This document shows, in pieces, positions 3,120 to 55,529 of a stretch of DNA of 55,529 nt (its first letter is position 1; every line of letters begins with the position of its first letter). The stretch spans positions 1-55,529 of the forward strand of contig JAZDOX010000075.1 in NCBI GenBank assembly GCA_043798215.1, given 5' to 3'. Source of the DNA: Candidatus Omnitrophota bacterium (GTDB lineage Bacteria > Omnitrophota > Gorgyraeia > Pluralincolimonadales > Pluralincolimonadaceae). The translations under genes and the position numbers were made by a program. The notes beneath the pieces were generated by a model. The model was not told the DNA's origin and did not search any database. It was given only the letters and a program-made list of their open reading frames with translations.

Positions 3120-3260
3120 ATGTAGGGCGTGTTCCCCGAGACTGTGTTGTAATGTAGTTGCTCGATTTATCGAGCACAATATATCTGCCCAATGAATTGG
3201 GCAACTACAATATGTTGACGCAGTTAGCGGAAAAAAGAGATTGCGACATAGTCTGAATGA
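3120..3260. repeat. Partial G-type fragment + B-core double hairpin + diverged arm, in the 5' UTR of the GH5 gene
   Basis: ATGTAGTTGCTCGATTTATCGAGCACAATATATCTGCCCAATGAATTGGGCAACTACAATATGTTGA. The arm GACGCAGTTAGCGGAAAAAAGAGATTGC recurs at 37651-37690. Confidence 0.75.
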
Positions 3261-8308: not shown

Positions 8309-8511
8309 ACTACATTGTAGTATAAATTTTATACTGTTCGAGCGAGGCCATTGGCCGAGTCGAGAACTATGGATATGCCTGCCTGTGCGTGGCACGCAGA
8401 CAGGGACAGGCAGCAGAACTTCTCGACTCATCCGCCTCAGGCGGATTCGCTCGAAGAATAAGCGCTTGCTGTCTCCAAGGACTACCATGAATTAATGTTA
8501 CAATGCGCTAC
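8309..8511 (+). mobile_element. Family A element, copy A3 (extra palindromic insert in the variable loop)
   Basis: Same TIRs and core, with the GGCCATTGGCC hairpin variant. The loop carries GCCTGCCTGTGCGTGGCACGCAGACAGGGACAGGCAGC. Confidence 0.9.
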
Positions 8512-12735: not shown

Positions 12736-13036
12736 ACTAATACGAACGCATTAAGTAAAGTGTCATTGCCCGGCTTGCAGGCTGGGCCATAACCCTTTTT
12801 TTTGACTAAATAGGTCAACATATTGTAGCTGCCCAATTTATTGGGCCGATATGTTGTGCTCGATAAATCGAGCAACTACATTATGACCCAGTCTCTTGAC
12901 CGGGCAATCCAGACACCAAGTAACATATCTTTATAGCGTGACTGGATTCCCCGCATTCGCGGAGAATGACAGCATGTATTTGATTTCATAGAAACTTATG
13001 AGATTGCCTATAGTCGATTAATGCGTTTGTATTAGT
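12736..13036. repeat. Four-level nested element (L > D > E > B core)
   Basis: L TIR ACTAATACGAACGCATTAA (12736-12754) / TTAATGCGTTTGTATTAGT (13018-13036). D is 12761-12971, E is 12782-12891, and the B hairpins are 12831-12846 and 12858-12873. Confidence 0.85.
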
Positions 13037-13102: not shown

Positions 13103-13630
13103 ATGAAAAATAGAATTACTATCATTTTTTTGATCGCGGCGGTATCGCTTTTATTCAAACTATTTTTATGTTGCCCCTGCCTTTTTGCTTCTTCAAATGA
13201 CGCCGGGTTAAGCATAAGCGTTGGCGTTAATTCTGTATTCAGCATTAAAGTTAGTCCCACGTCTCTTGATTTTGGAAGCGCCGACCCGGGCGCTGTCACG
13301 CCCACCAAGACAGTTGTTATCGAGTGTGTTACCAATAATAATAATCAATGGATTGTTCAGATAAGCGATGCCGCTGAGTTGACGGCAGGCGTCTATACCA
13401 TTGCCAACGGTGAATTTAACTGGTGGGGATCCAGCAATGGTTCGGGTTATTGGAATCCGGGGACAGCAAAGATGAGCGTCGAGCCCCAGACTTTTTATAC
13501 TGCCGCTTCGGACGAATATATCACCACCGCACCGGTGGTTTTAACCGTTAATCTCAATGTAGATATCCCTAATTACCAACCAGCCGGCACATATGTTACG
13601 ACCATTGAATTTACTATGTGCGAACAATAA
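13103..13630 (+). CDS. Small secreted beta-sandwich protein P1, putative fibre/pilin-like subunit
   Basis: Signal peptide. The mature N-terminus has strictly alternating hydrophobic residues (GLSISVGVNSVFSIKV). Motifs SLDFGSADPG, QWIVQI, FNWWGSS and the C-terminal QPAGTYVTTIEFTM resemble SCPU/DUF4402/WxL-type surface subunits. It is a paralog of the next gene. Confidence 0.6.
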   Translation: MKNRITIIFLIAAVSLLFKLFLCCPCLFASSNDAGLSISVGVNSVFSIKVSPTSLDFGSADPGAVTPTKTVVIECVTNNNNQWIVQISDAAELTAGVYTIANGEFNWWGSSNGSGYWNPGTAKMSVEPQTFYTAASDEYITTAPVVLTVNLNVDIPNYQPAGTYVTTIEFTMCEQ

Positions 13631-13663
13631 ATCCCATTAGAGATCTTCGGCCTCCAATGGGAT
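13631..13663 (+). terminator. Hairpin between P1 and P2 (partial terminator / attenuator candidate)
   Basis: ATCCCATTAGAG...CCTCCAATGGGAT forms an 8 + 3 bp stem with one mismatch, followed by AAATTTT. Confidence 0.45.
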
Positions 13664-13676
13664 AAATTTTGATGAT

Positions 13677-14223: not shown

Positions 14224-14429
14224 TGTCATTTCCCGATTTACAGACTGGGATACAATGTTGTGCTCGATTTATTGAGTACAACATATCGGCCCAATATCAT
14301 GCTTGAGGTAGACCCGCCTCTTGCGCCAGAGGCGCATCAAGCTGAGGCGGGAATTGGGCAACTACATTATGTTGATCTATTTAGTCAAGAAAAAGGGCTA
14401 TGTCCCAGTCTCCAAGTTGGGCAATGACA
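14224..14429. repeat. Nested D/E/K palindromic block
   Basis: TGTCATTTCCCGA ... GGGCAATGACA arms, a B-core, and an insert GCTTGAGGTAGACCCGCCTCTTGCGCCAGAGGCGCATCAAGCTGAGGCGGGAA. Confidence 0.8.
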
Positions 14430-14513
14430 ATATAAAATTGAATCTCAAAACTAAATTCTCGTCGTGACGTAGAAATTAATTTAGACACAAGCGATTAAAT
14501 AAGGAACATAAAA

Positions 14514-18598: not shown

Positions 18599-18898
18599 TG
18601 TCATCGTCTGGCTTGACCAGACGATCCAGACATGTTAATCCGTGACTGGATTACCCGAACAACAGACTGTGACATAACCCTTTTTCTTGACTAAATAGAT
18701 CAACATATTGTAGTGCATTGTAACATAAATTTTATACTGTTTGAGCGAGGCCATTGGCCGAATCGAGAACTATGGATATGCCTGCCTGTCGGCAGACAGT
18801 CCTATCAAGCTGAGGCGGGAATCGAGCAACTACATTATGACCCAGTTTGCAAGTCGCCTGCCTGCCGAAGCTTTTTGGCGTAGGCAGGGGTAATGACA
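18599..18898. repeat. Nested block: D element > E element > truncated family A copy
   Basis: TGTCATCGTCTGG...CCAGACGATCCAGACA, E arm CATAACCCTTTTTCTTGACTAAATAGATCAACATATTGTAG, then A4, then ...CAACTACATTATGACCCAG ... GGGGTAATGACA. Confidence 0.8.
18711..18802 (+). mobile_element. Family A element, copy A4 (left half only)
   Basis: TAGTGCATTGTAACATAAATTTTATACTGTTTGAGCGAGGCCATTGGCCGAATCGAGAACTATGGATATGCCTGCCTGTCGGCAGACAG, then a junction into a different repeat. Confidence 0.8.
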
Positions 18899-18940: not shown

Positions 18941-20395
18941 ATGAATATCGAGCTTAAACAGGTGAACGAATACATATGGGAAATTCCAAGATCCGGAGAG
19001 ATGCTTGTGCCCGGCAGAATTTATGCCGACGCGGAATTGATAAAACACTTGACCGATGATGTGGAAAAGGGGAAAGAATGGAATGCGTTGGTTCAGGTAA
19101 AAAATGTGGCCTCTCTTCCTGGCATTCAAAAAGCGTCGCTTGCTATGGCGGACATACACCCCGGTTATGGATTCGCGATAGGCGCTATCGGCGCTTTTGA
19201 CATTGAGACAGGCGTTATTTCGGTGGCAGGCGTGGGGTTTGACTGTAACTGCGGAGTCAGGACCTTGCGCACACAGCTTACCCGCGATGATTTAAAAGGC
19301 AAGGAAGAACAGCTTGCCAATGAATTATTCAGAGTTATTCCTGCCGGTATCGGCTCAGAGGGGCGGATTGAGCTTTCCGTCAATGAGATAGACGAGGTTC
19401 TTATCAAAGGCGCTAAGTTTTCCGTCGAGCATGGTTACGGTTGGCAGGAAGACCTGACGTTTATGGAAGAGGAAGGCTGTGTTAAAGGCGCCGATCCCAA
19501 AATGGTTAGTTATGAAGCGAAAAAAAGGGGATTTAATCAGGTAGGGACATTAGGCTCTGGCAATCATTATTTGGAAGTGCAGTATGTCTCTGAAATTTAT
19601 GACGACGAAGCCGCGCAAATTTATGGGTTGTTTCCCAACCAAGTTTTAGTCTCGATACATTGCGGAAGCCGCGCCTTAGGGCATCAAATAGGCGCGGATT
19701 ACCTTAAAATTTTGGAAGCCGCCTCTATAAAATATAATATCCCGATAAGGGAAAGAGAACTTGTTTGCGCGCCGTTTAATAGCGAGGAAGGGAAGCGTTA
19801 TTTCAAGGCGATAAACTGCGGCATTAACGCCGCTTTTGCCAACAGGCAGGTATTGACGCATTTGACCAGAAAAGCCTTTAGTTCGGCGATTGGCGTCGAT
19901 GAAAAAACTATTCGCACTTTGTATGATATAGGCCATAATACGGCTAAATTGGAAGAACACGCCGTTGATGGACAGGTAAAGACTTTGATAGTTCACAGGA
20001 AAGGCGCCACTCGCGCTTTCGGCCCGGGCAGGCCCGAGATACCGGATAGGTATAAAAAGATAGGCCAGCCTGTTTTGGTCGGAGGCACAATGGGCACTTG
20101 CTCATATATTTTGCATGGCACCGAGAAGGGGATGAGGGAAGTCTTTGGCACGGCGGTTCATGGCGCCGGAAGAGTTTCTTCGCGCCAGCAGGCAAAACGC
20201 AGGTGGCGCGGCTCAGAGTTGATAAAAGAGCTTAAACAAAAAGGGATAATAATAAAAGGTCACAGCCTTGCTGGTGTGGCCGAAGAAGCTCCCGGCGCTT
20301 ATAAGAATGTTACACAAGTCGTTAATGTCGTTCATAATGCCGGAATTGCTCTTAAAGTGGCTATGTCAAAGCCTATAATTTCAGTTAAGGGATAA
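18941..20395 (+). CDS. rtcB: RNA-splicing ligase RtcB
   Basis: Motifs GSGNHYLEVQ, HCGSRALGHQ, HNTA, HGAGR. I prefer ATG 18941 (RBS gagagg, MNIELKQV...) to the track start 18893, which lies inside a repeat. Confidence 0.9.
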   Translation: MNIELKQVNEYIWEIPRSGEMLVPGRIYADAELIKHLTDDVEKGKEWNALVQVKNVASLPGIQKASLAMADIHPGYGFAIGAIGAFDIETGVISVAGVGFDCNCGVRTLRTQLTRDDLKGKEEQLANELFRVIPAGIGSEGRIELSVNEIDEVLIKGAKFSVEHGYGWQEDLTFMEEEGCVKGADPKMVSYEAKKRGFNQVGTLGSGNHYLEVQYVSEIYDDEAAQIYGLFPNQVLVSIHCGSRALGHQIGADYLKILEAASIKYNIPIRERELVCAPFNSEEGKRYFKAINCGINAAFANRQVLTHLTRKAFSSAIGVDEKTIRTLYDIGHNTAKLEEHAVDGQVKTLIVHRKGATRAFGPGRPEIPDRYKKIGQPVLVGGTMGTCSYILHGTEKGMREVFGTAVHGAGRVSSRQQAKRRWRGSELIKELKQKGIIIKGHSLAGVAEEAPGAYKNVTQVVNVVHNAGIALKVAMSKPIISVKG

Positions 20396-20396
20396 A

Positions 20397-20425
20397 CCCC
20401 GTTAGATGTTTACTATCTAACGGGG
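20397..20425 (+). terminator. CCCGTTAG-family hairpin after rtcB
   Basis: CCCCGTTAGAT / ATCTAACGGGG: 11-bp perfect stem, 7-nt loop, 2 nt after the stop. No T-run follows. Confidence 0.45.
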
Positions 20426-20491
20426 TAAATGCAGATACCCCTATCTGTAGCTATTTTATCGACGATAAGCCCAATATATAGTATTTTTTAC

Positions 20492-20521
20492 TTGACAAAG
20501 CCCAATCGACAGCGCTATACT
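20492..20521 (+). promoter_or_regulatory. Sigma70-type promoter upstream of nrdJ
   Basis: TTGACA (20492-20497), 18-nt spacer, TATACT (20516-20521). Confidence 0.55.
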
Positions 20522-20567
20522 TATAGTGAAAACGAGGTTATTGGATGAGCGGGTTGGCGGGTGTACG

Positions 20568-20607
20568 GGTAACTCACTTACTCGTTAATCCGATAACTGG
20601 CTAACAT
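20568..20607 (+). promoter_or_regulatory. Phased octamer array (5 x GNTAAYNN) in the nrdJ leader
   Basis: TAAC/TTAC/TAAT/TAAC/TAAC start at 20570, 20578, 20586, 20594 and 20602. The array ends TAACATAG just before the SD. Confidence 0.5.
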
Positions 20608-20626
20608 AGCAAGGGAGGGGATCAAG

Positions 20627-22915
20627 ATGAATAAGAGGGTTGAGGAGGGCGGATTATCCGCCAATTCAAGGAAAGTTTTGGAGAGGCGTTATCTCAAGAA
20701 AGATTCCGAGGGAAAGCCGCAGGAGACCATAGAGGAACTTTTTCGCAGAGTCGCTCATAATATAGCTACAGCCGATTCAAGTTATGATCCGGCCGCGGAT
20801 ATTAAAAAGACGGAAGAAGAGTTTTACGCAATCATATATAACTTAGAATTTTTACCTAATTCCCCAACCTTAATGAATGCCGGCCGCGATTTACAACAGT
20901 TATCGGCGTGTTTTGTTTTGCCCGTTGAGGATTCTATGGAGTCTATATTCGAGGCGATAAAGAATACCGCTCTCATCCACCGCTCAGGCGGCGGCACGGG
21001 TTTTTCGTTTTCGAGACTGCGTCCAAAGAATAGCATGGTAAAGACAACCGGCGGCATAGCCAGCGGGCCGGTGTCATTTATGAAAGTATTTGACGCCGCG
21101 ACCCAGGCGGTAAAGCAGGGCGGCACGCGCCGCGGCGCCAATATGGGAATTCTGAGGATTGATCATCCGGATATTATGGATTTTATAAGATGCAAAGAGT
21201 CGGATAAGGATATTACTAATTTTAATATCTCTGTCGCGCTTACAGAGGATTTTATGAAAGCCGTTGAATGCGATGAGTATTACGATCTTATAGCCCCGCA
21301 TAACAAAAAACCCGTCGACCGGCTTAAGGCCAGGGAGGTCTTTAACGCGATAGTCGAGATGGCTTGGAGGAACGGCGAGCCTGGGATAGTGTTTATAGAC
21401 AGAATTAACAAGATGAATCCCACTCCTAAGATAGGAGAGATAGAGTCCACAAATCCTTGCGGGGAGCAGCCACTTTTGCCGTATGAAAGCTGCAATTTGG
21501 GTTCGATAAATCTCGTTAAGATGGTTAGGCGGACAGATGTCGGTTTTGAGATAGATTGGCAGCATTTGCGCAAGGTGATTCATTTAGCGGCGCATTTCCT
21601 TGATAATGTTATAGATATGAATAAGTTTCCGCTTAGGCAGATTGAAGCGATGACTAAGGCGAATAGGAAGATAGGCTTGGGAGTTATGGGATTTGCGGAG
21701 ATGCTCATTAAATTGGGAATTCCGTATGATTCCGAAGAGGCTATAGAAATAGGCGAGAAGATTATGTTGTTTATCCAGGACGAGGCTAAAAAGGCCTCTC
21801 AGTTATTGGCGTTAAGGCGAGGGCCGTTTCCTAATTTTCAGAACTCGATTTATGCCGACGGGCCCGCTTTGAGGAATGCGACCCTGACGACAATAGCTCC
21901 GACAGGAACATTGTCGATAATCGCAAATACCTCCAGCGGAATTGAGCCCTTGTTTGCTATTTCGTATTATCGCGAGGTTATGGATAAAACCAAACTCGCC
22001 GAAGTTAATTCTCTTTTTGAGGAGACCGCTAAAGAGAGAGGATTTTATTCCGAGAAACTTATGGAGAAGATAGCCGAAAAAGGGAGCTTGCACGATATCG
22101 AAGAAGCGCCTGAAGATGTGAAGAAGTTGTTCGTTACGGCTCATGACATAACTCCTATCTGGCACATAAGGATGCAGGCTGCGTTTCAGAAATATACCGA
22201 TAACGCCGTATCAAAGACGGTGAATTTTTCAAATTCAGCGGATATAGAAGATGTTCTTGAAGTCTATCTTCTTGCCTATAAGATGGGCTGTAAAGGCGTT
22301 ACCATATACCGCGACGGAAGCAGACAGGAGCAGGTTTTATATATTGCCCGGCCGAAAGAGAAAGAAAAGACAGACGATAATGTTATCGAGGATAATAAGG
22401 AAGAAAAGGCGAGAACTTCTCCGCGTCCCAGACCTGAGGTGACGAAGGGCACGACCACCAAGATACTCACCGGTTGCGGAAATCTTTATATCACGATAAA
22501 TGAGGATGAGGATGGGAATCCTTTCGAGGTATTTACCCAGATGGGTAAAGCCGGCGGCTGCGCAGGAAGCCAGCTTGAAGCTATAGGCAGGCTTGTTTCG
22601 TTGGCCCTAAGATGTGGTCTGGACACTCATTCGATAATAGAGCAGCTAAGCGGAATCAGATGCCCGAATCCTTCCTGGGAGAAAGGCGGAAGAATATTCT
22701 CATGCGCCGACGCTATTGCCAAAGCGATAGAAAAACGCTTATTGAATAAGAAACTTCAGCAGGAAAATAATATCAAGAATGATGAGGGTTCTTCCCATCA
22801 GAACAAACCCAAGGTTTTAAATGTCGTCGGTGTTTGTCCGGATTGCGGCGGCGCGTTGCAACATCAGGAAGGCTGTATGATTTGCAAAGCCTGCGGCTAC
22901 TCTAAATGCGGGTAA
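20627..22915 (+). CDS. nrdJ: Class II (adenosylcobalamin-dependent) ribonucleotide reductase
   Basis: Motifs STNPCGEQPL..ESCNLGSINL, TIAPTGT, VSKTVN. C-terminal zinc ribbon CPDCGG...CMICKACG. RBS gggagggg. Confidence 0.9.
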   Translation: MNKRVEEGGLSANSRKVLERRYLKKDSEGKPQETIEELFRRVAHNIATADSSYDPAADIKKTEEEFYAIIYNLEFLPNSPTLMNAGRDLQQLSACFVLPVEDSMESIFEAIKNTALIHRSGGGTGFSFSRLRPKNSMVKTTGGIASGPVSFMKVFDAATQAVKQGGTRRGANMGILRIDHPDIMDFIRCKESDKDITNFNISVALTEDFMKAVECDEYYDLIAPHNKKPVDRLKAREVFNAIVEMAWRNGEPGIVFIDRINKMNPTPKIGEIESTNPCGEQPLLPYESCNLGSINLVKMVRRTDVGFEIDWQHLRKVIHLAAHFLDNVIDMNKFPLRQIEAMTKANRKIGLGVMGFAEMLIKLGIPYDSEEAIEIGEKIMLFIQDEAKKASQLLALRRGPFPNFQNSIYADGPALRNATLTTIAPTGTLSIIANTSSGIEPLFAISYYREVMDKTKLAEVNSLFEETAKERGFYSEKLMEKIAEKGSLHDIEEAPEDVKKLFVTAHDITPIWHIRMQAAFQKYTDNAVSKTVNFSNSADIEDVLEVYLLAYKMGCKGVTIYRDGSRQEQVLYIARPKEKEKTDDNVIEDNKEEKARTSPRPRPEVTKGTTTKILTGCGNLYITINEDEDGNPFEVFTQMGKAGGCAGSQLEAIGRLVSLALRCGLDTHSIIEQLSGIRCPNPSWEKGGRIFSCADAIAKAIEKRLLNKKLQQENNIKNDEGSSHQNKPKVLNVVGVCPDCGGALQHQEGCMICKACGYSKCG

Positions 22916-23861: not shown

Positions 23862-24711
23862 ATTGAGGTTATCTCTTTCCGCCTCAGATTTTAACTTGGA
23901 ACACACCTTAGAATGTGGCCAAGCTTTTCGATGGGAAAAATCAGACAACGGTTACCAAGGCGTGATTGGCAGAGCGCTTTTAAAGATTAACTATGACGGC
24001 GCCCGCTTACAGGTTGAGTCAAGTTCACCCCTAAGCAAAGAAGCTCTCACAGAGTATTTTGGCTTGAATGAGAATATGCCGCGCATACTAAAAGAAATAG
24101 ACCTCGATAGCCATATCCATAAAGCGATTCTTAAATTTCATGGTTTACGCGTCTTAAATCAGGATCATTGGGAATGCCTCGCTTCTTATATTCTTTCTTC
24201 CTATAATAATATAGCCCGTATTAAGATAATGATAGAAAAACTCTCGAGAGCTTTTGGCGAAAGGCTGACTCTTGGCTGTATTGAACGGCGCTCTTTTCCT
24301 TCCATTGAAAAGATTGCCGCCGTTAATCTGTCGGCGCTTAAAAAATTAGGCTTAGGTTTCAGGGCCTCGTATTTGAAAAAAACTGCCGGGGACCTTTTAG
24401 CCAAAAGACTTGATTTAGACAGCCTTGAGAACTTAAGCTATAATGAGGCGAAGACGAAACTCACACGTCTTAAAGGAGTGGGAGAAAAAGTCGCCGATTG
24501 CGTTTTATTGTTTTCTTTTAAGAAATATGAGGCTTTTCCGGTAGATGTCTGGATAAAGAGAGCGGTGGAACGGTTTTATTTCAATGGCAGGCCTGTCAGC
24601 TCTAAAAGAGCGGCGGAATTCGCGCGTGAATACTTTGGCCGTTATGCCGGTTACGCGCAGGAATATCTTTATCATTATATGAGATGCGGATATAGGCAGG
24701 CTGGGCCATAA
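23848..24711 (+). CDS. ogg: 8-oxoguanine DNA glycosylase / AP lyase (Ogg1-type, HhH-GPD)
   Basis: ECGQAFRW near the N-terminus. HhH-GPD motif [15 protein letters not shown] followed by FPVDVW. Overlaps dcd by 14 nt. The last codons and the stop lie inside a repeat element. Confidence 0.8.
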
Positions 24712-24845
24712 CCCTTTTTCTTGACTAAATAGATCAACATATTGTAGTTGCCCAATTCCCGCCGGAGGCGGGTCTGCCTCAGGCATGATATTGGGCCGAT
24801 ATGTTGCGCTCGATAAATCGAGCAACTACATTATGACCCAGTCTC
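24696..24845. repeat. E element with K insert, overlapping the 3' end of ogg
   Basis: CTGGGCCATAACCC ... ATTATGACCCAG. The hairpin GCCCAAT..ATTGGGC is split by TCCCGCCGGAGGCGGGTCTGCCTCAGGCATGAT. Confidence 0.85.
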
Positions 24846-24856
24846 ATAGAGGCGGA

Positions 24857-24995
24857 TAGTGCATTGTAAAGTTAATTCTTGACAGTTTGTCATGCCCGGA
24901 TGCTTTAATCGGGCATCCAGACACGCCCATTTCTGGATTCCCGCTAAAAGATTGCGGGAATGACAACTGGTGGAAACTAATTTTACAATGTACTA
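24857..24995 (+). mobile_element. Family F element, copy F1 (carries a D-type double hairpin in its centre)
   Basis: TAGTGCATTGTAAAGTTAATTCTTGACAG ... CTGGTGGAAACTAATTTTACAATGTACTA. The centre is TGTCATGCCCGG..CGGGCATCCAGACA..TCTGGATTCCCGC..GCGGGAATGACA. Confidence 0.85.
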
Positions 24996-25053
24996 TCGCT
25001 TACGCAAAGGCAGGTTAAGAAGATTTATGATTGCGCCCGCCGCATATTTTCAA

Positions 25054-25503: not shown

Positions 25504-25632
25504 AATGCGCCTTTCTTTAAAAAGAGGTTTTTAACGGCGATTTTATCCCGTTAGAAATAAATTTCTAACGGGATTTATTTTACTTTATTTATAAACCCGA
25601 GTCCACATTATTTTTATATAGGCAAAAAAATC

Positions 25633-30412: not shown

Positions 30413-30424
30413 AGTCCTTTCTTT

Positions 30425-30458
30425 ATCCCGTTAGAAAACAGGGTTCTCTAAACGGGAT
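30425..30458 (+). terminator. CCCGTTAG-family hairpin after the coiled-coil lipoprotein gene
   Basis: ATCCCGTTAGA ... TCTAAACGGGAT, one bulge. Confidence 0.4.
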
Positions 30459-30577
30459 TTATCCCTTGCCTTAGATAAGCCCATTTGGTAAAATTATGCT
30501 ACAAGAGTCAAACCAGCTAACGAACAAACGAATGAAGGGTTAACGGGTGTGCGGGTAAACGAGTACCCCGTCAGTTC

Positions 30578-30625
30578 GATAACTCGTTAACTCGATAACC
30601 GGCTAACCCGTTAACAGGGTAACAT
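30578..30625 (+). promoter_or_regulatory. Phased octamer array (6 x GNTAACNN) in the purH leader
   Basis: TAAC starts at 30580, 30588, 30596, 30604, 30612 and 30620. The array ends TAACATAGGAG (SD). Confidence 0.5.
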
Positions 30626-30636
30626 AGGAGAAATAA

Positions 30637-32202
30637 ATGGTAAAAGTAAACAGAGCGCTTTTGAGTGTCTCTGACAAGACGGGCATAGTCGAATTTGCGA
30701 AGGGCCTTGAAAAATTGGGGATAGAAATGATTTCCACCGGCGGAACGTCGGAGATCTTGAGGTCTAAAGGCGTAAAGATAAGATCTGTCTCGGAAATTAC
30801 CGGTTTTCCCGAAATATTGGACGGACGGGTCAAGACGCTTCATCCCAAGATACACGGGGGCATTTTGGCCAAACGCAATGAATTAGCACACGCCTCGCAA
30901 CTCAAGAAGCATGGCATAGAGACTATAGATTTAGTTGTCGTAAATCTGTATCCGTTTGAAGAGACGATAGCTAATTCTAATGTTAAATTAGAGGATGCCA
31001 TTGAGATGATAGATATAGGCGGCCCCGCCATGATTCGCTCAGCCGCCAAGAATTTTAAGTATGTTGGCGCTGTCTGTAATCCCGCGAGATACGCCGAAGT
31101 CTTATCCGAACTTGTGGAGAACGGACGCATTTTATCCGATGATACGCTTTCCGCGCTTGCGGTTGATGCCTTTAGCCGAACAGCAGAATATGATTTTAAG
31201 ATATATGAGTTTTTACAATCCAGATCGCGGGACAATGCTTGCTTTCCCTCCATTTTGAGCCTCATTTTTAATAAAGTCCAAGGATTGCGCTACGGCGAGA
31301 ATCCGCATCAGGAAGCGGTTTTTTATGCCGATTCGGTTAGCCCGAAAGGCGGTTTTGCCGGAATAAAACAACTGCATGGCAAAGAATTGTCTTTTAATAA
31401 TTTCCTGGATTTGAGTTCGGCCCTGGGCATAGTGAAAGATTTTGATTCTCCCTGCGCCTGCGTTGTCAAACATTGTTCTCCGTGCGGGATAGCTTGTTGC
31501 GGCAGGATTAGCGAGGCTTTCGCGCGCGCTTTCGCCTGCGACAGCCTGTCGGCTTTTGGCGGTATAGTGGGGTTAAATAGAAAAGTAGACTCGAAGACGG
31601 CGCGGAAGATTCGAGATTGTGGTTTTCTGGAGTGCGTTATAGCGCCCGGATATGCCGCTCAAGCGGTGAAGATCCTAATGGGCAAGAAAAATTTAAGGAT
31701 AATAGAGTTTCCGGATTTATTTAAGAAGCCGCTGGAAAACGCATACGGATATGACATTAAAAAAGTAGAGGGGGGATTGCTTGTTCAGCGGCGCGACGAA
31801 GCCGCTATTGCGCCCAGCGACTTAAAGATTATGAACAAAGGAAAATTAACCGAAAGCGGGATTAAATCTCTTTTGTTTGCTTGGAAAGCCGCTAAGCATG
31901 TCAGGTCAAACGCCATAGTCATATGCAAAGGGGAGCGCGCTGTGGGTATCGGAGGCGGACAGCCCAGCAGAGTTGACTCGGTTAGGATAGCCCTTGATAA
32001 GGCGGGCAAGAACGCTATAGGCGCATATTTGGCAAGCGACGGGTTTTTCCCGAAGCCCGATTCAATTCTTTTGGCGGCCAAGGCAGGTATTAAAGCGATA
32101 ATCCAGCCCGGCGGATCTGTTAAGGATGAGGAAGTAATAAAAGCCGCCAAGAAGTCCGGGATAGCTATGGTTTTTACCGGAATGAGGCATTTTAGGCACT
32201 AA
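30637..32202 (+). CDS. purH: Bifunctional AICAR transformylase / IMP cyclohydrolase
   Basis: N-terminal MGS-like IMPCH domain (ALLSVSDKTGIVEFAK, HPKIHGGIL) and C-terminal AICARFT domain (GIGGGQPSRVDS, FFPF-like DGFFPKPD). Confidence 0.92.
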   Translation: MVKVNRALLSVSDKTGIVEFAKGLEKLGIEMISTGGTSEILRSKGVKIRSVSEITGFPEILDGRVKTLHPKIHGGILAKRNELAHASQLKKHGIETIDLVVVNLYPFEETIANSNVKLEDAIEMIDIGGPAMIRSAAKNFKYVGAVCNPARYAEVLSELVENGRILSDDTLSALAVDAFSRTAEYDFKIYEFLQSRSRDNACFPSILSLIFNKVQGLRYGENPHQEAVFYADSVSPKGGFAGIKQLHGKELSFNNFLDLSSALGIVKDFDSPCACVVKHCSPCGIACCGRISEAFARAFACDSLSAFGGIVGLNRKVDSKTARKIRDCGFLECVIAPGYAAQAVKILMGKKNLRIIEFPDLFKKPLENAYGYDIKKVEGGLLVQRRDEAAIAPSDLKIMNKGKLTESGIKSLLFAWKAAKHVRSNAIVICKGERAVGIGGGQPSRVDSVRIALDKAGKNAIGAYLASDGFFPKPDSILLAAKAGIKAIIQPGGSVKDEEVIKAAKKSGIAMVFTGMRHFRH

Positions 32203-37256: not shown

Positions 37257-37275
37257 GTTGTCAGACTGCGTTGCA

Positions 37276-37329
37276 ATGTAGTTGCTCGATTTATCGAGCG
37301 CAACATATCGGCCCAATAAATTGGGTAAC
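37276..37329. repeat. B-core double hairpin abutting F2
   Basis: ATGTAGTTGCTCGATTTATCGAGCGCAACATATCGGCCCAATAAATTGGGTAACTAC. Confidence 0.8.
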
Positions 37330-37468
37330 TACTGCATTGTAAAGTTAGTTCTTGGCAGTTTGTCATGCCCGGATGCTTTAATCGGGCATCCAGACACGCC
37401 CATTTCTGGATTCCCGCTAAAAGATTGCGGGAATGACAACTGGTGGAAACTAATTTTACAATGTACTA
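37330..37468 (+). mobile_element. Family F element, copy F2
   Basis: Near-identical to F1. Confidence 0.9.
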
Positions 37469-37642
37469 CTGCTCTGTAACATTAATTCATGGTAGTCCCT
37501 GGAGACAGCAAACACTTATTCTTCGAGCGAATCCGCCTGAGGCGGATGAGTCGAGAAGTTCTGTTGCTGTCCATATCTGTGGTTCTCGACTCGGCCAATG
37601 GCCTCGCTCGAACAGTATAAAATTTATGTTACAATGCACTAC
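37466..37642 (-). mobile_element. Family A element, copy A5
   Basis: Reverse complement of the family A consensus, full length, abutting element F2. Confidence 0.9.
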
Positions 37643-43049: not shown

Positions 43050-43226
43050 GTAGTGCATTGTAACATAAATTTTATACTGTTCGAGCGAGGCCATTGGCCG
43101 AGTCGAGAACTATGGATACGGGCAGCAACAGAACTTCTCGACTCATCCGCCTCAGGCGGATTCGCTCGAAGAATAAGTGTTTACTGTCTCCAAGGACTAC
43201 CACGAATTAATGTTACAGAGCAGTAG
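43050..43226 (+). mobile_element. Family A element, copy A6 (reference copy) between mlaF and mlaD
   Basis: Full TIRs. Core 43080-43170 forms a four-way junction with no linker nucleotides (see findings). Confidence 0.9.
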
Positions 43227-44081: not shown

Positions 44082-44256
44082 AGTAGCGCTCTGTAACATT
44101 AATTCGTGGTAGTCCTCGGAGACAGCAAACACTTATTCTTCGAGCAAATCCGCCTGAGGCGGATGAGTCGAGAAGTTCTGTTGCTGCCCGTATCCATAGT
44201 TCTCGACTCGGCCAATGGCCTCGCTCGAACAGTATAAAATTTATGTTACAATAGTA
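44082..44256 (-). mobile_element. Family A element, copy A7
   Basis: Reverse complement of the consensus. Ends 22 nt before the FecR-domain gene start. Confidence 0.9.
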
Positions 44257-45192: not shown

Positions 45193-45228
45193 TTTATAAC
45201 AATAGAATTTATAACTTAAAGATTGTTA

Positions 45229-45402
45229 GTATATTGCAACATAAATTTTATACTGTTCGAGCGAGGCCATTGGCCGAGTCGAGAACTATGGATATGGACA
45301 GCAGTAGAACTTCTCGACTCATCCGCCTCAGGCGGATTTGCTCGAAGAATAAGTGTTTGCTGTTTTCAAGGACTGTCATGAATTAATGTTACAGGGCATT
45401 AG
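45229..45402 (+). mobile_element. Family A element, copy A8
   Basis: ATTGCAACATAAATTTTATACTG ... AATTAATGTTACAGGGCATTAG, with an intact core. Confidence 0.9.
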
Positions 45403-50759: not shown

Positions 50760-50858
50760 ATTTTTGTTGTCTATCCCCTCTAAAGATACAAAATCTTATC
50801 GGTAAATTATGTCAGAGATTATAGTTTCTGATTGCACAAGGATAAAAAGGAGAATATA

Positions 50859-53292
50859 GTGAGAAAACTGGCAGTAGTTTTGGCGGTAATCGGTTATGTG
50901 TTTTCTTTTTCCCACATTGTTTTTGCGGCTCAGGAAAGTATCGTTGCGGATCATCAGGCTTACGGAACGAACGGAGATCCCTTAAATGAAGGAGCTGTCT
51001 TTACGGGAGATTTCAATTATGATGTCGGCGATGGCGACAATTTAGGCCAAACAGGGACCGTTAGCATTGATGGCGGCGAAGCTTCCTTCCCTGATACAGG
51101 AACGGTTAATTTTGTCGGAGGTTCGGTATTACAAGGAAGCATCGGTGAAAATATAGACATAATCAAAGCCATTAATTGTAATGGTATTGCCGGAAAGACT
51201 GTTCAGGTCGGCGCGGCTGCCGGAGCCGATTCGTTTATTACCGCCGTTACAATTGCAGGGGCGGGCACCCTGAATCTTGACGGCAGTCTTTTTGCGGATA
51301 CTCTTGCTTATACCGCTGATGGCCTCGTTACAATAGCCGATAATGAAGATATTTTCGCTGATATTACTACGGCTACCGGCGGCACAGGCGCCCTTACAAT
51401 AGAAGGAACCTCGACTATCACTGGAGATGTCGGCGCCAGCGGAGCTGAACTCAAGAAAATTAATGCCGGCAATAATGGTGAAGTTGTTGCTTTCACGGGG
51501 AATATTTATACTGCTAACCTCGCGCTTGTAGGGACATCTACGGTAACAATCGCGGCGGGCAAAAATATCAACAATATTGTTACCGCCGGCACAAATGGCC
51601 AGGGAGCTTTGACCTATCTCGGCAGTTCGACAACCGGCGGAAATATTGGAAATGCTGCGGGTAATGCGCTTGCGGCCGTTAATATAAATGGCGGAACCTT
51701 AAGCCTTGGCCACAATATTACGGCGACTACCGCCACGGCGAATAATAATGCCGTATGTTCGTTAACCGGCAACAGAACGATAACAGGCGATATGACACTT
51801 GCAGGAACCAGCACATTAAATGTCGGCATAAATACACTTACTTTAGCCGGCACGGGTATATACACTCAGGGGGCAAACACGACACTCGCGGTTGGTGTCG
51901 CCGGGTCAACTTCAGGTCAGATAGTTGGCGCGGGTAACGCGGTAGTTAACGCGAACAGCGCGGTGGATATTGCCACAAACGGCGCTTATATCCCAAACGG
52001 AACAACGTATAGGGTTGTTGACGGAGCCGGCGGCGCGGGTGTAAATGTTCCTGCGACAATTACCGACAATGACGCATTTGTCAGCTTTAGCGCTAACAGT
52101 TCGAGTGGCGATTTGATATTGACCGCAAATCGCACCAATTCTTTTGATAAGATTGCCGCCAACGACAACGCGGCTGCCGTGGGCGCGGCGCTTGATTCAG
52201 CCGGAAAAGCGGGAGCTGTGGGCGATATGCTCACAGTTTTAAATACCTTGGAATCTTTGCCGGTTTCAGATGTAAGTTCTTCTCTCGATACTTTTGTGCC
52301 CACGGTTGATGCCGGCGCGATAAACGCGACTACGGTAATGAACAGTAACTTTGTGAATTTTTCGGTTGAGAGAGCCGAGAGCGCGATGCGGATTGCGCGT
52401 GAGAGCGCGGATAAAGCGGAATCGGGATTTTCCGCCGGGGATAAAGAAAACTTAAACGGAATATGGGTAAAAGGATTTGGTTCTTATATAACGCAAGATA
52501 AACGAAAGGGAATAAAGGGGTATAACTCAACCACATTCGGCACAATTCTTGGGGTGGATCGCTCGTTTATGAATAGCGCCAGATTGGGGATTAGCGGCGG
52601 TTGGGCGGCCGGAGACGTGAATTCCGACGCAAATAATGGAAAGACGGATATAGATGGCGGACAGGCTACCGTTTACGGCGCTTACGATAACGAGGGCGCC
52701 CCCTTTTTTTGTAACTGCCGCCGGCTCATTCGGCTGGAACAAGTATAACGGAAAGAGAAATATCAATATAGGATCTACGATAAAGAGAACTACCAACGCG
52801 GACTATTCCGGGCGGCAATACGGCGCGTATATCGGAGGCGGTTATGACATAAAGGGCTACAGCAGCGCCACGCTGACGCCTCTTGTTTCTCTTCAATATA
52901 GCCATCTTAATCTGGATAGTTATACCGAAACAGGGGCGGATGCCCTTAATTTAAGCGTTAAAAAGCAGGGTTACGATACCTTGCAGTCGGGACTTGGCGT
53001 TCGGACGGAATATCCCATAGAGTTCAAGAATTTTACTCTGACAAGCGAGGTTCACGGTAAATGGCTTTATGATTTCTTTGGCGATGAAGTAACAATGACC
53101 TCGACTTTTACCGGCGGCGGCGCGTCCTTTGAGGCAAAGGGATATAAGCCGGCGCAGAGCAGCTTTGACGTCGGCACGAAGTTACTTTTGGCTCATAAGC
53201 AGGATCTTTCACTGACGGCGGAGTACGACGTTGAAGTAAAAGAAGACTTTGTGGGCCAACACGGGGCGGTTACCGTCAGGTATAATTTCTAA
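50859..53292 (+). pseudogene. Autotransporter (type Va) with beta-helical passenger; reading frame broken by 1 nt in a C5T7 tract
   Basis: GTG start with AGGAG RBS, and a signal peptide. The passenger is rich in G/T/A/N with repeated G.TLTLAG-type rungs. The translocator barrel ends VTVRYNF. Frame 0 (to 52748) and frame +1 (from 52654) overlap around 52699-52710. Removing one base gives ...NEGAPFFVTAAGSFGWNKY.... Confidence 0.8.
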
Positions 53293-55389: not shown

Positions 55390-55529
55390 CTACTGCATTG
55401 TAAAATTAGTTTTCACTAATTGTCATTCCCGCAATCTTTTAGCGGGAATCCAGAAATGGGCGTGTCTGGATGCCCGATTAAAACATTCGGGCATGACAAA
55501 CTGCCAAGAACTAACTTTACAATGCACTA
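55390..55529 (-). mobile_element. Family F element, copy F3 (ends at the window edge)
   Basis: Reverse complement of F1/F2 with a few substitutions. Confidence 0.85.

Follow-up and report, generated by a model that had tools for sequence, protein, structure and literature searches.

What does a strictly periodic array of TAAC-containing octamers do between the promoter and the Shine-Dalgarno sequence (SD) of purH, and why does a related array precede nrdJ in the same genome? Both arrays lie in the window, by which we mean the whole 55,529-nt stretch of DNA that was analysed; it is unremarkable chromosomal DNA from an Omnitrophota-like bacterium. To our knowledge, the Omnitrophota have no cultured model organism, and their gene regulation is almost unknown. 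The ORF at 30637 encodes PurH (NCBIfam equivalog, E 7e-209) and the ORF at 20627 encodes NrdJ, the B12-dependent ribonucleotide reductase, with best relatives sharing 64-70 % and 78-83 % identity, respectively; an exact look-up of the window's PurH gave no recorded entry. The operons downstream of the arrays, purH-folC and nrdJ-dcd-ogg, serve nucleotide or folate synthesis. Near-identical DNA is present in groundwater and drinking-water metagenomes. Elsewhere in the window, overlapping ORFs at 50832-52748 and 52654-53292 divide one autotransporter beta-domain between them (profile positions 1-80 at the end of the first ORF, 78-255 in the second), a split that is probably due to a frameshift or sequencing error.

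Anatomy of the two leader arrays

The earlier note on this DNA described six TAAC motifs phased every 8 nt and running into the purH SD, and the coordinates of these motifs hold: on the plus strand they start at 30580, 30588, 30596, 30604, 30612 and 30620, and the octamers read, in order, GATAACTC GTTAACTC GATAACCG GCTAACCC GTTAACAG GGTAACAT, followed by AGGAG, six bases and the ATG. Five in-phase units had likewise been reported for the nrdJ leader at 20570-20602; their phase and number stand, but exact TAAC occurs in only three of the five (20570 TAAC, 20578 TTAC, 20586 TAAT, 20594 TAAC, 20602 TAAC). The last unit lies 25 nt from the ATG in nrdJ versus 17 nt in purH, a difference of exactly 8 nt, as had been claimed. 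A pair of sequences, GTTAACGGG/CCCGTTAAC, was said to enclose the purH array; the position of CCCGTTAAC (30607-30615) is right, whereas GTTAACGGG occupies 30539-30547 and not 30540-30548, and because CCCGTTAAC sits within the array (units 4-5), the pair does not enclose the whole of it. What had been missed is that the 8-nt period extends over the entire leader:

30513 to 30624, plus strand: purH leader array, 14 in-phase octamers, lag-8 identity 0.60, z 8.3
30580 to 30623, plus strand: the six exact TAAC units of purH, from sequence reading and the pattern compared with shuffles
30626 to 30639, plus strand: purH SD AGGAG (30626-30630) and ATG (30637-30639), SD predicted unpaired, p 0.93
20535 to 20606, plus strand: nrdJ leader array, 9 in-phase octamers, lag-8 identity 0.50, z 5.0
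20570, 20578, 20586, 20594 and 20602, plus strand: xAAC positions of nrdJ
20613 to 20629, plus strand: nrdJ SD GGGAGGGG (20613-20620) and ATG (20627-20629), SD predicted unpaired, p 0.93

Both arrays are in sense orientation and stop 2-7 nt short of the SD, and their units follow the consensus S-G-N-T-A-A-C-N, with the G at position 2 and the T at position 4 best kept. A three-unit pattern with one mismatch allowed has five matches in the 55-kb window, all within the purH and nrdJ leaders, against a mean of 0.23 in 100 dinucleotide shuffles, none of which (0/100) reaches five. The same two leaders have the highest lag-8 self-identity anywhere in the 55 kb, with the signal echoed at lags 16 and 24, and a position-weight scan of the window returns these two arrays and no others. 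Chance is ruled out as the origin of the periodicity. Because the array region contains stop codons in all three frames, it is non-coding; a leader peptide or N-terminal extension was rejected on account of these stops and of the sole upstream ATG (30497), which precedes the inferred transcription start site (TSS). When the units were compared by eye with the consensus sequences of DnaA, IHF, CtrA, PurBox and NrdR, none fitted.

Each array is placed between the SD and a predicted sigma-70-type promoter:

30466 to 30494, plus strand: predicted purH promoter (TTGCCT, 17-nt spacer with TG, TAAAAT), TSS inferred near 30501
20492 to 20521, plus strand: predicted nrdJ promoter (TTGACA, 18-nt spacer, TATACT), TSS inferred near 20528

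These predictions are supported because both promoters are conserved among relatives: the purH promoter sequence is kept in L001, L082, L083, L212 and L213, and nrdJ orthologues keep TTGACA together with TACACT, TATACT or TATCGT. The inferred 5' UTRs measure ~136 nt for purH and 99 nt for nrdJ. The promoter regions also contain the sequence AAGCCCA(A)T, with two copies 31-32 bp apart at the nrdJ promoter (20467-20475 and 20499-20507) and one in the spacer of the purH promoter (30477-30483); it is kept in relatives' purH promoters as AAAAGCCCATCTGG, and at the matching nrdJ position relatives have the NrdR-box-like ACACAATATATTGTAT. This sequence could be a DNA operator common to both operons and separate from the arrays.

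The two leaders resemble each other in sequence as well as in period. Exact occurrences of the 14-mer GGGTGTRCGGGTAA are confined to them, a CTCGTTAAYYCGATAACYGGCTAAC stretch is identical at 22 of 25 letters, and TAACATAG terminates both arrays. The common stretches align without gaps in registers offset by 8 nt, and the copies thus differ by gain or loss of whole units. When the leaders are aligned without gaps, their best register gives 57 % identity and other 8-nt shifts give 52, 49 and 49 %; these near-equal values mean that colinear homology, together with the common fold described below, rests partly on periodicity; BLASTN at E < 1e-4 did not link the two leaders. Taken together, the arrays appear best explained as paralogous copies of one lineage-specific 5'-UTR module.

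Relatives, populations and the repeat landscape

We compared the leaders with orthologous regions upstream of nrdJ (n=6: L205/L206, L207, L208/L209, L210/L211, L212, L213) and of purH (n=10: L001, L002, L010, L073, L081, L082, L083, L084, L212, L213, of which L084 repeats L083). In the nrdJ regions the synteny rtcB-nrdJ-dcd-ogg is intact, and both the TTGACA promoter and an NrdR-box-like sequence are kept; the leaders there span only ~25-60 nt, and the array is present in 0/6. It is likewise present in 0/10 of the purH regions, where the leader ranges from absent to ~45 nt, versus ~136 nt in the window. In L001 and L082 the purH ATG stands eight bases past the -10 element, so that the mRNA is predicted to be effectively leaderless; in L002, L010 and L073 purH immediately follows another gene, and in L081, L083, L212 and L213 the leaders measure ~40-45 nt. 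With a purH leader absent in some relatives and 40-45 nt long in others, we are dealing with a fast-changing 5' UTR. The leaderless-type purH starts, with their conserved -10 TAAAAT, lie at 2960-3003 of L001 and 1460-1503 of L082, and the relatives with 40-45-nt purH leaders carry an SD.

Over the whole rtcB-to-folC block, L212 and L213 match the window in colinear order, and the array occurs nowhere in them; compared with these empty sites, the window contains an extra ~110 nt (purH) and ~80 nt (nrdJ) between the first leader bases and the SD. No target-site duplication was found at the insert boundaries when these were set against the empty sites of L081, L083, L205 and L213. Conservation in orthologous leaders, which the earlier note had raised as a way of judging its reading, is not what the relatives show: an array found in 0/16 upstream regions is a recent lineage-specific gain and not a conserved attenuator. 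This absence fits recent insertion as well as it would regulatory gain. The octamer leader arrays are real and found only in this lineage.

Two extra samples, X1 and X10, which possibly represent one strain, allowed unit number to be compared between populations. Their contigs match the purH leader over 30512-30620 and 30512-30640, with 0 differences and 0 gaps, and because these independent contigs from two other runs are identical, we rejected an assembly artefact. Two outcomes had been named beforehand as speaking against a regulatory role, hypervariable unit number and dispersal in both orientations, and neither was encountered: no unit-number variation was seen in the purH array in X1 and X10, and the 55-kb window holds two copies of the TAAC module, both sense and both within the promoter-to-SD interval. 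In run X1 (~4x depth, with an assembly representing ~37 % of sampled words), there was no further copy at >=80 % identity. A hypervariable simple-sequence repeat, in which slippage in unit number would serve as a phase or level switch, would suit the tandem 8-nt structure and the whole-unit difference between the two copies; it was already disfavoured and is very improbable, given that the degenerate units are a poor slippage substrate, that the purH array is identical and gapless in X1 and X10, and that an 8-nt change in a UTR shifts no reading frame.

The lineage is unusually rich in intergenic repeats, of which the window contains the following:

1109-1289, 1789-1975, 8313-8502, 18711-18778, 37466-37641, 43051-43226, 44088-44252 and 45227-45402: ~175-nt intergenic repeat, 8 copies, both orientations
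2674-2846, 3139-3255, 12765-12895, 14261-14434, 18641-18714, 24696-24845 and 37263-37332: composite repeat, at least 7 copies, both orientations
24857-25000, 37330-37473 and 55391-55529: ~140-nt repeat, 3 copies, both orientations
20396-20426, 25545-25574, 13626-13668 and ~30424-30458: REP-like palindrome

Copies of the ~175-nt repeat are 80-98 % identical and have a MITE-like or small-RNA-gene-like look; Rfam gave no hit for this family, and the relatives' syntenic loci lack it. The REP-like palindrome (ATCCCGTTAGA-loop-TCTAACGGGAT) stands just past stop codons. Its copy at 20389-20431 reaches a depth of ~2000 in groundwater runs X2 and X3, where unique DNA stands at 3-4, and it occurs on >100 contigs with different flanks; one strain variant is without 36 nt (30422-30457), which are the REP-like copy before purH. 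None of the window's repeat families occurs in the relatives' loci.

Metagenomes were scanned with a pattern of four TAAC-N-S-N-N units, which is generic and says little about the purH/nrdJ family. It returned octamer arrays of many different sequences, at least 120 in number and belonging to unrelated organisms; (TAACCCAA)n, (TAACTCCT)n and (TAACTGGA)n are examples. Among the matches listed, some are inverted pairs and some stand directly before start codons, and none carries the 5' motif or any of the window's repeat families. Such matches show TAAC-containing octamer arrays to be apparently widespread, and uncharacterised, in environmental genomes. Nine loci (L123, L125, L132, L133, L139, L150, L173, L186 and L195) have a conserved GCATTTGGCT followed by 3-5 TAACTCC(T/A) octamers; these occur on both strands, several of them 14-60 nt before the start codons of varied SD-less genes, and our guess would be that they form a different, Bacteroidota-like octamer family. 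In L096, L100, L124, L168, L196 and L198, from unrelated organisms, inverted octamer-array pairs are potential long hairpins, and in L100 an ssb-like gene has such a pair immediately upstream of its SD and ATG. Viral contigs searched with a specific two-part pattern gave no match, nor did BLAST against plasmids and phages, and nhmmer with the two-sequence core alignment (one base out of register) gave chance-level octamer-array hits only across all loci. A search of RNA-seq runs returned none that covers this locus.

Predicted folding and candidate explanations

The 5' units of the arrays are G-rich (GGGTTAAC, GGGTGTGC, GGGTAAAC) and complementary to the 3' UAAC units. From the two leaders, RNAalifold predicts a common hairpin of 20 pairs (P1 10, P2 6, P3 4), with 1 compensatory and 6 one-sided changes, 0 broken pairs and 5 G·U pairs per copy:

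30538 to 30600, plus strand: common hairpin in purH (RNAalifold)
30538-48/30590-600, 30551-56/30582-87 and 30561-64/30574-77, plus strand: P1, P2 and P3 of the purH hairpin (RNAalifold)
20536 to 20598, plus strand: nrdJ hairpin, 24 pairs including 6 G·U, -30.3 kcal/mol, z -4.6
30606 to 30615, plus strand: ACCCGUUAAC, alternative partner for 30539-30548 in a 10-bp Watson-Crick helix

The helix 30539-30548/30606-30615, which corresponds to the inverted repeat pointed out previously, is the one used by the single-sequence minimum free energy (MFE) fold of purH, and the apical part of the hairpin differs between the two copies. Most units are predicted to be base-paired and not single-stranded: outside the common hairpin lie one UAAC unit in nrdJ and three in purH, with the SD unpaired too. 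The antisense strand of the nrdJ element reaches only -13.0 kcal/mol (z -1.0), and over the 72-nt hairpin segment the sense/antisense MFE is -27.8/-11.3 kcal/mol for nrdJ and -21.0/-15.4 kcal/mol for purH. The purH element folds at -32.0 kcal/mol (z -2.2) on the sense strand, but over its full 98 nt neither strand has a clear advantage (z -2.2 sense, -2.7 antisense), so that sense-strand specificity is clear for nrdJ only. The use of G·U pairs and the greater stability of the sense strand point to the RNA level.

Several known modes of leader control were rejected. Sequestration of the SD, as in an RNA thermometer, does not fit an SD that is unpaired (p 0.93) and has no anti-SD sequence. No intrinsic terminator-like site is present in either leader, which removes an intrinsic terminator/attenuator from consideration and makes attenuation unlikely. 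A riboswitch is unlikely as well, given the low-complexity sequence, the unconserved apex and the lack of an Rfam hit: the whole window yields 0 hits at gathering score, both leaders searched at E up to 10 give chance-level hits of 11-15 bits only, and neither ZTP (for purH) nor cobalamin or other riboswitches (for nrd) reached the gathering score. Pfam and NCBIfam searches of the 37 window ORFs of at least 150 aa identified no TRAP, HutP or other evident RNA-binding regulator.

Our preferred reading, which we hold tentatively, is that the arrays are a lineage-specific RNA-level cis-element that is read periodically by a protein beside the SD. A module would have been inserted or expanded between the TSS and the SD of nucleotide-supplying operons, and we infer that it acts on the mRNA. 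Its G-rich 5' units would pair, partly by G·U, with the 3' UAAC units to give a ~63-nt hairpin, and an oligomeric protein reading UAAC every 8 nt would bind the units beside the SD and might contend with the hairpin for the remaining ones. Once bound, this protein would occlude ribosome binding and co-regulate both operons, in a manner like that of TRAP at trpG or HutP at hut. With no terminator after the array, control would be exerted on translation or stability and not by attenuation. Same orientation, a narrow pre-SD position, kept phase, related pathways and a common fold that is sense-stable in nrdJ all favour a function, in associations that are small-number and post hoc because there are only two copies. 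The TRAP/HutP-type reading of the earlier note survives in part: the predicted position in a transcribed leader, the sense orientation, the abutment on the SD, the related operons and the sense-stable G·U fold agree with it, whereas the array's absence from all 16 orthologous regions, the burial of most units in a hairpin and the missing terminator do not. An RNA operator is further weakened by the repeat-rich genome and by the lack of a candidate protein among the window ORFs. More doubtful is the fuller version of this reading, a new periodic RNA operator with UAAC every 8 nt over 9-14 units, partly within a G·U-rich hairpin, that would couple nrdJ-dcd with purH-folC; here, dNTP and purine/folate synthesis would be coupled by an oligomeric RNA-binding protein in an Omnitrophota lineage, and the element would have spread between leaders through copy-and-paste of whole units.

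At least as likely as an RNA operator, and a serious possibility though short of probable, is that we are looking at a low-copy repeat, tolerated or selfish: a slippage-born octamer hairpin element copied to a second 5' UTR that has no dedicated regulator and at most a side effect on mRNA stability or processing, comparable to Correia and REP/REPIN elements. The arrays are insertions relative to 16/16 orthologous upstream regions, seemingly recent, in only two copies and with no partner protein found, and they share the window with at least three other families in two orientations and a very-high-copy REP-like palindrome, all absent from relatives. To this can be added that TAAC octamer arrays, often as hairpin-forming inverted pairs, are common at varied intergenic positions in unrelated metagenome contigs, and that the hairpin apex is not conserved between the copies. 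A tolerated repeat does not, however, account readily for a copy number of just two, in the same orientation, over 55 kb that contain 3-8 copies of each other family, for their both falling within the short promoter-to-SD interval before functionally related operons, or for whole-unit differences that preserve the phase; nor is there a terminal inverted repeat with target-site duplication, though inverted arms exist, or a further copy in X1 at the identity and coverage given above. A purely structural 5' hairpin, setting mRNA half-life or cut by RNase III, with the period unread and a mere trace of its origin, has its own points in favour: the hairpins are imperfect and sense-stable (-30 and -32 kcal/mol, z -4.6 and -2.2), the consensus fold is common to both leaders, the SD is free, and RNase III typically cuts long imperfect hairpins of this kind in 5' UTRs. 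We nevertheless regard it as quite unlikely, since 8-37 nt separate the hairpins from the inferred 5' end, more than classical 5'-end protection would allow, and since both the UAAC period of the unpaired tail up to the SD and the whole-unit difference between the copies would be left unexplained.

A DNA-level explanation had been dismissed on the grounds that an 8-nt period is unsuited to a face-of-helix DNA binder. That argument fails because MetJ-type proteins bind tandem 8-bp units, and MetJ, omega and ParG are precedents for an operator array here, in which each 8-bp unit, a pseudo-palindrome around GTTAAC, would be bound by a dimer of a polymerising repressor whose filament, from ~+7 to +125, would keep the polymerase from escaping the promoter or elongating. 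The arrays have a period of exactly 8 bp, the units come near the palindrome GTTAAC with G2/C7 and T4/A5 both symmetric and conserved, and the arrays start a few bases after the predicted TSSs; tandem palindromic octamers are moreover self-complementary, which would make the hairpin potential a by-product. Paired tandem-octamer sites in Geobacter metallireducens have been proposed as sites of a global regulator (PMC2700814). The unit, however, is asymmetric (A6 is invariant, whereas position 3, its symmetry mate, varies freely), both arrays point the same way with respect to their gene, with G-rich units 5' and UAAC units 3', and the nrdJ hairpin relies on G·U pairing and loses much of its stability when the opposite strand is folded. 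At 9-14 units the arrays are also long for an operator, they lie entirely downstream of the promoters, and no ribbon-helix-helix gene was seen among the 37 scanned window ORFs, so that a DNA operator is in our judgement unlikely.

Comparison with known systems

Among repeats, Correia and REP/REPIN elements occur in tens to hundreds of copies, in both orientations and with terminal repeats, Correia elements with target duplications, and long imperfect 5'-UTR hairpins cut by RNase III are known from the pnp and rnc leaders and from Correia elements. The arrays resemble the Correia elements of Neisseria and REPINs as small lineage-specific repeats in 5' UTRs that would form mRNA hairpins with effects on stability in a repeat-rich host; they differ in having two copies, one orientation, no target duplication and an internal 8-nt period. 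If they are tolerated repeats, they would be an example of 5'-UTR remodelling in repeat-rich genomes.

Among DNA operators, MetJ binds tandem 8-bp met boxes (AGACGTCT), 2-5 per site and overlapping the promoter, and omega and ParG are ribbon-helix-helix proteins on contiguous 7- or 8-bp units (7 bp for omega). As at MetJ targets, the arrays consist of contiguous, roughly palindromic 8-bp units (lag-8 identity 0.60 and 0.50; z 8.3 and 5.0) at genes of one pathway, with a unit number that varies by gene. Palindromic AGACGTCT units repeated 2-5 times over the promoter were not found, however: the sequence is unrelated, the units are asymmetric at positions 3/6 and number 9-14, they lie downstream of the -10 element and promoter, and the sense strand gives the more stable fold, which speaks for RNA. 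The octamer sites of Geobacter metallireducens, 48 genome-wide with consensus GTTGCTYN and four units per site, are of unknown function beyond the proposal of a global regulator, and some have insertion sequences at a fixed distance (PMC2700814). They share with the arrays intergenic tandem octamers grouped into inverted pairs with a varying distance between the partners, but their unit differs and no link to a leader or SD is reported (PMC2700814).

On RNA, the arrays resemble TRAP targets in that a 5' leader carries short motifs at a constant period of less than one helical turn. TRAP of Bacillus subtilis, a ring oligomer (MtrB) acting at the trp leader, trpG, trpP and ycbK, reads 9-11 (G/U)AG triplets with 2-3-nt spacers and a period of 5-6 nt; some of its sites overlap the SD and repress translation, and it can compete with an RNA hairpin. 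Here, in a different phylum, the (G/U)AG triplets are replaced by UAAC at a strict 8-nt period with 4-nt spacers, there is no terminator/antiterminator pair, and no mtrB-like gene is present among the 37 scanned window ORFs. HutP acts as a hexamer on the Bacillus hut leader, where two sets of three UAG-N4 sites with a period of 7 nt, located in a terminator hairpin, mediate antitermination. A tri- or tetranucleotide motif with 4-nt spacers embedded in a leader hairpin is common to both, whereas the period here is 8 nt, the motif is UAAC, neither leader has a terminator-like site for antitermination to act on, and the 37 scanned ORFs include no hutP-like gene. TRAP and HutP, whose defining motifs the arrays lack, are nonetheless their closest functional analogues on RNA: in both, a ring or oligomer counts short motifs at fixed spacing. 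If a protein does read the arrays, this principle would come to include a motif, a period and a phylum that are all new to it, in a regulon recently assembled by pasting a repeat module into leaders.
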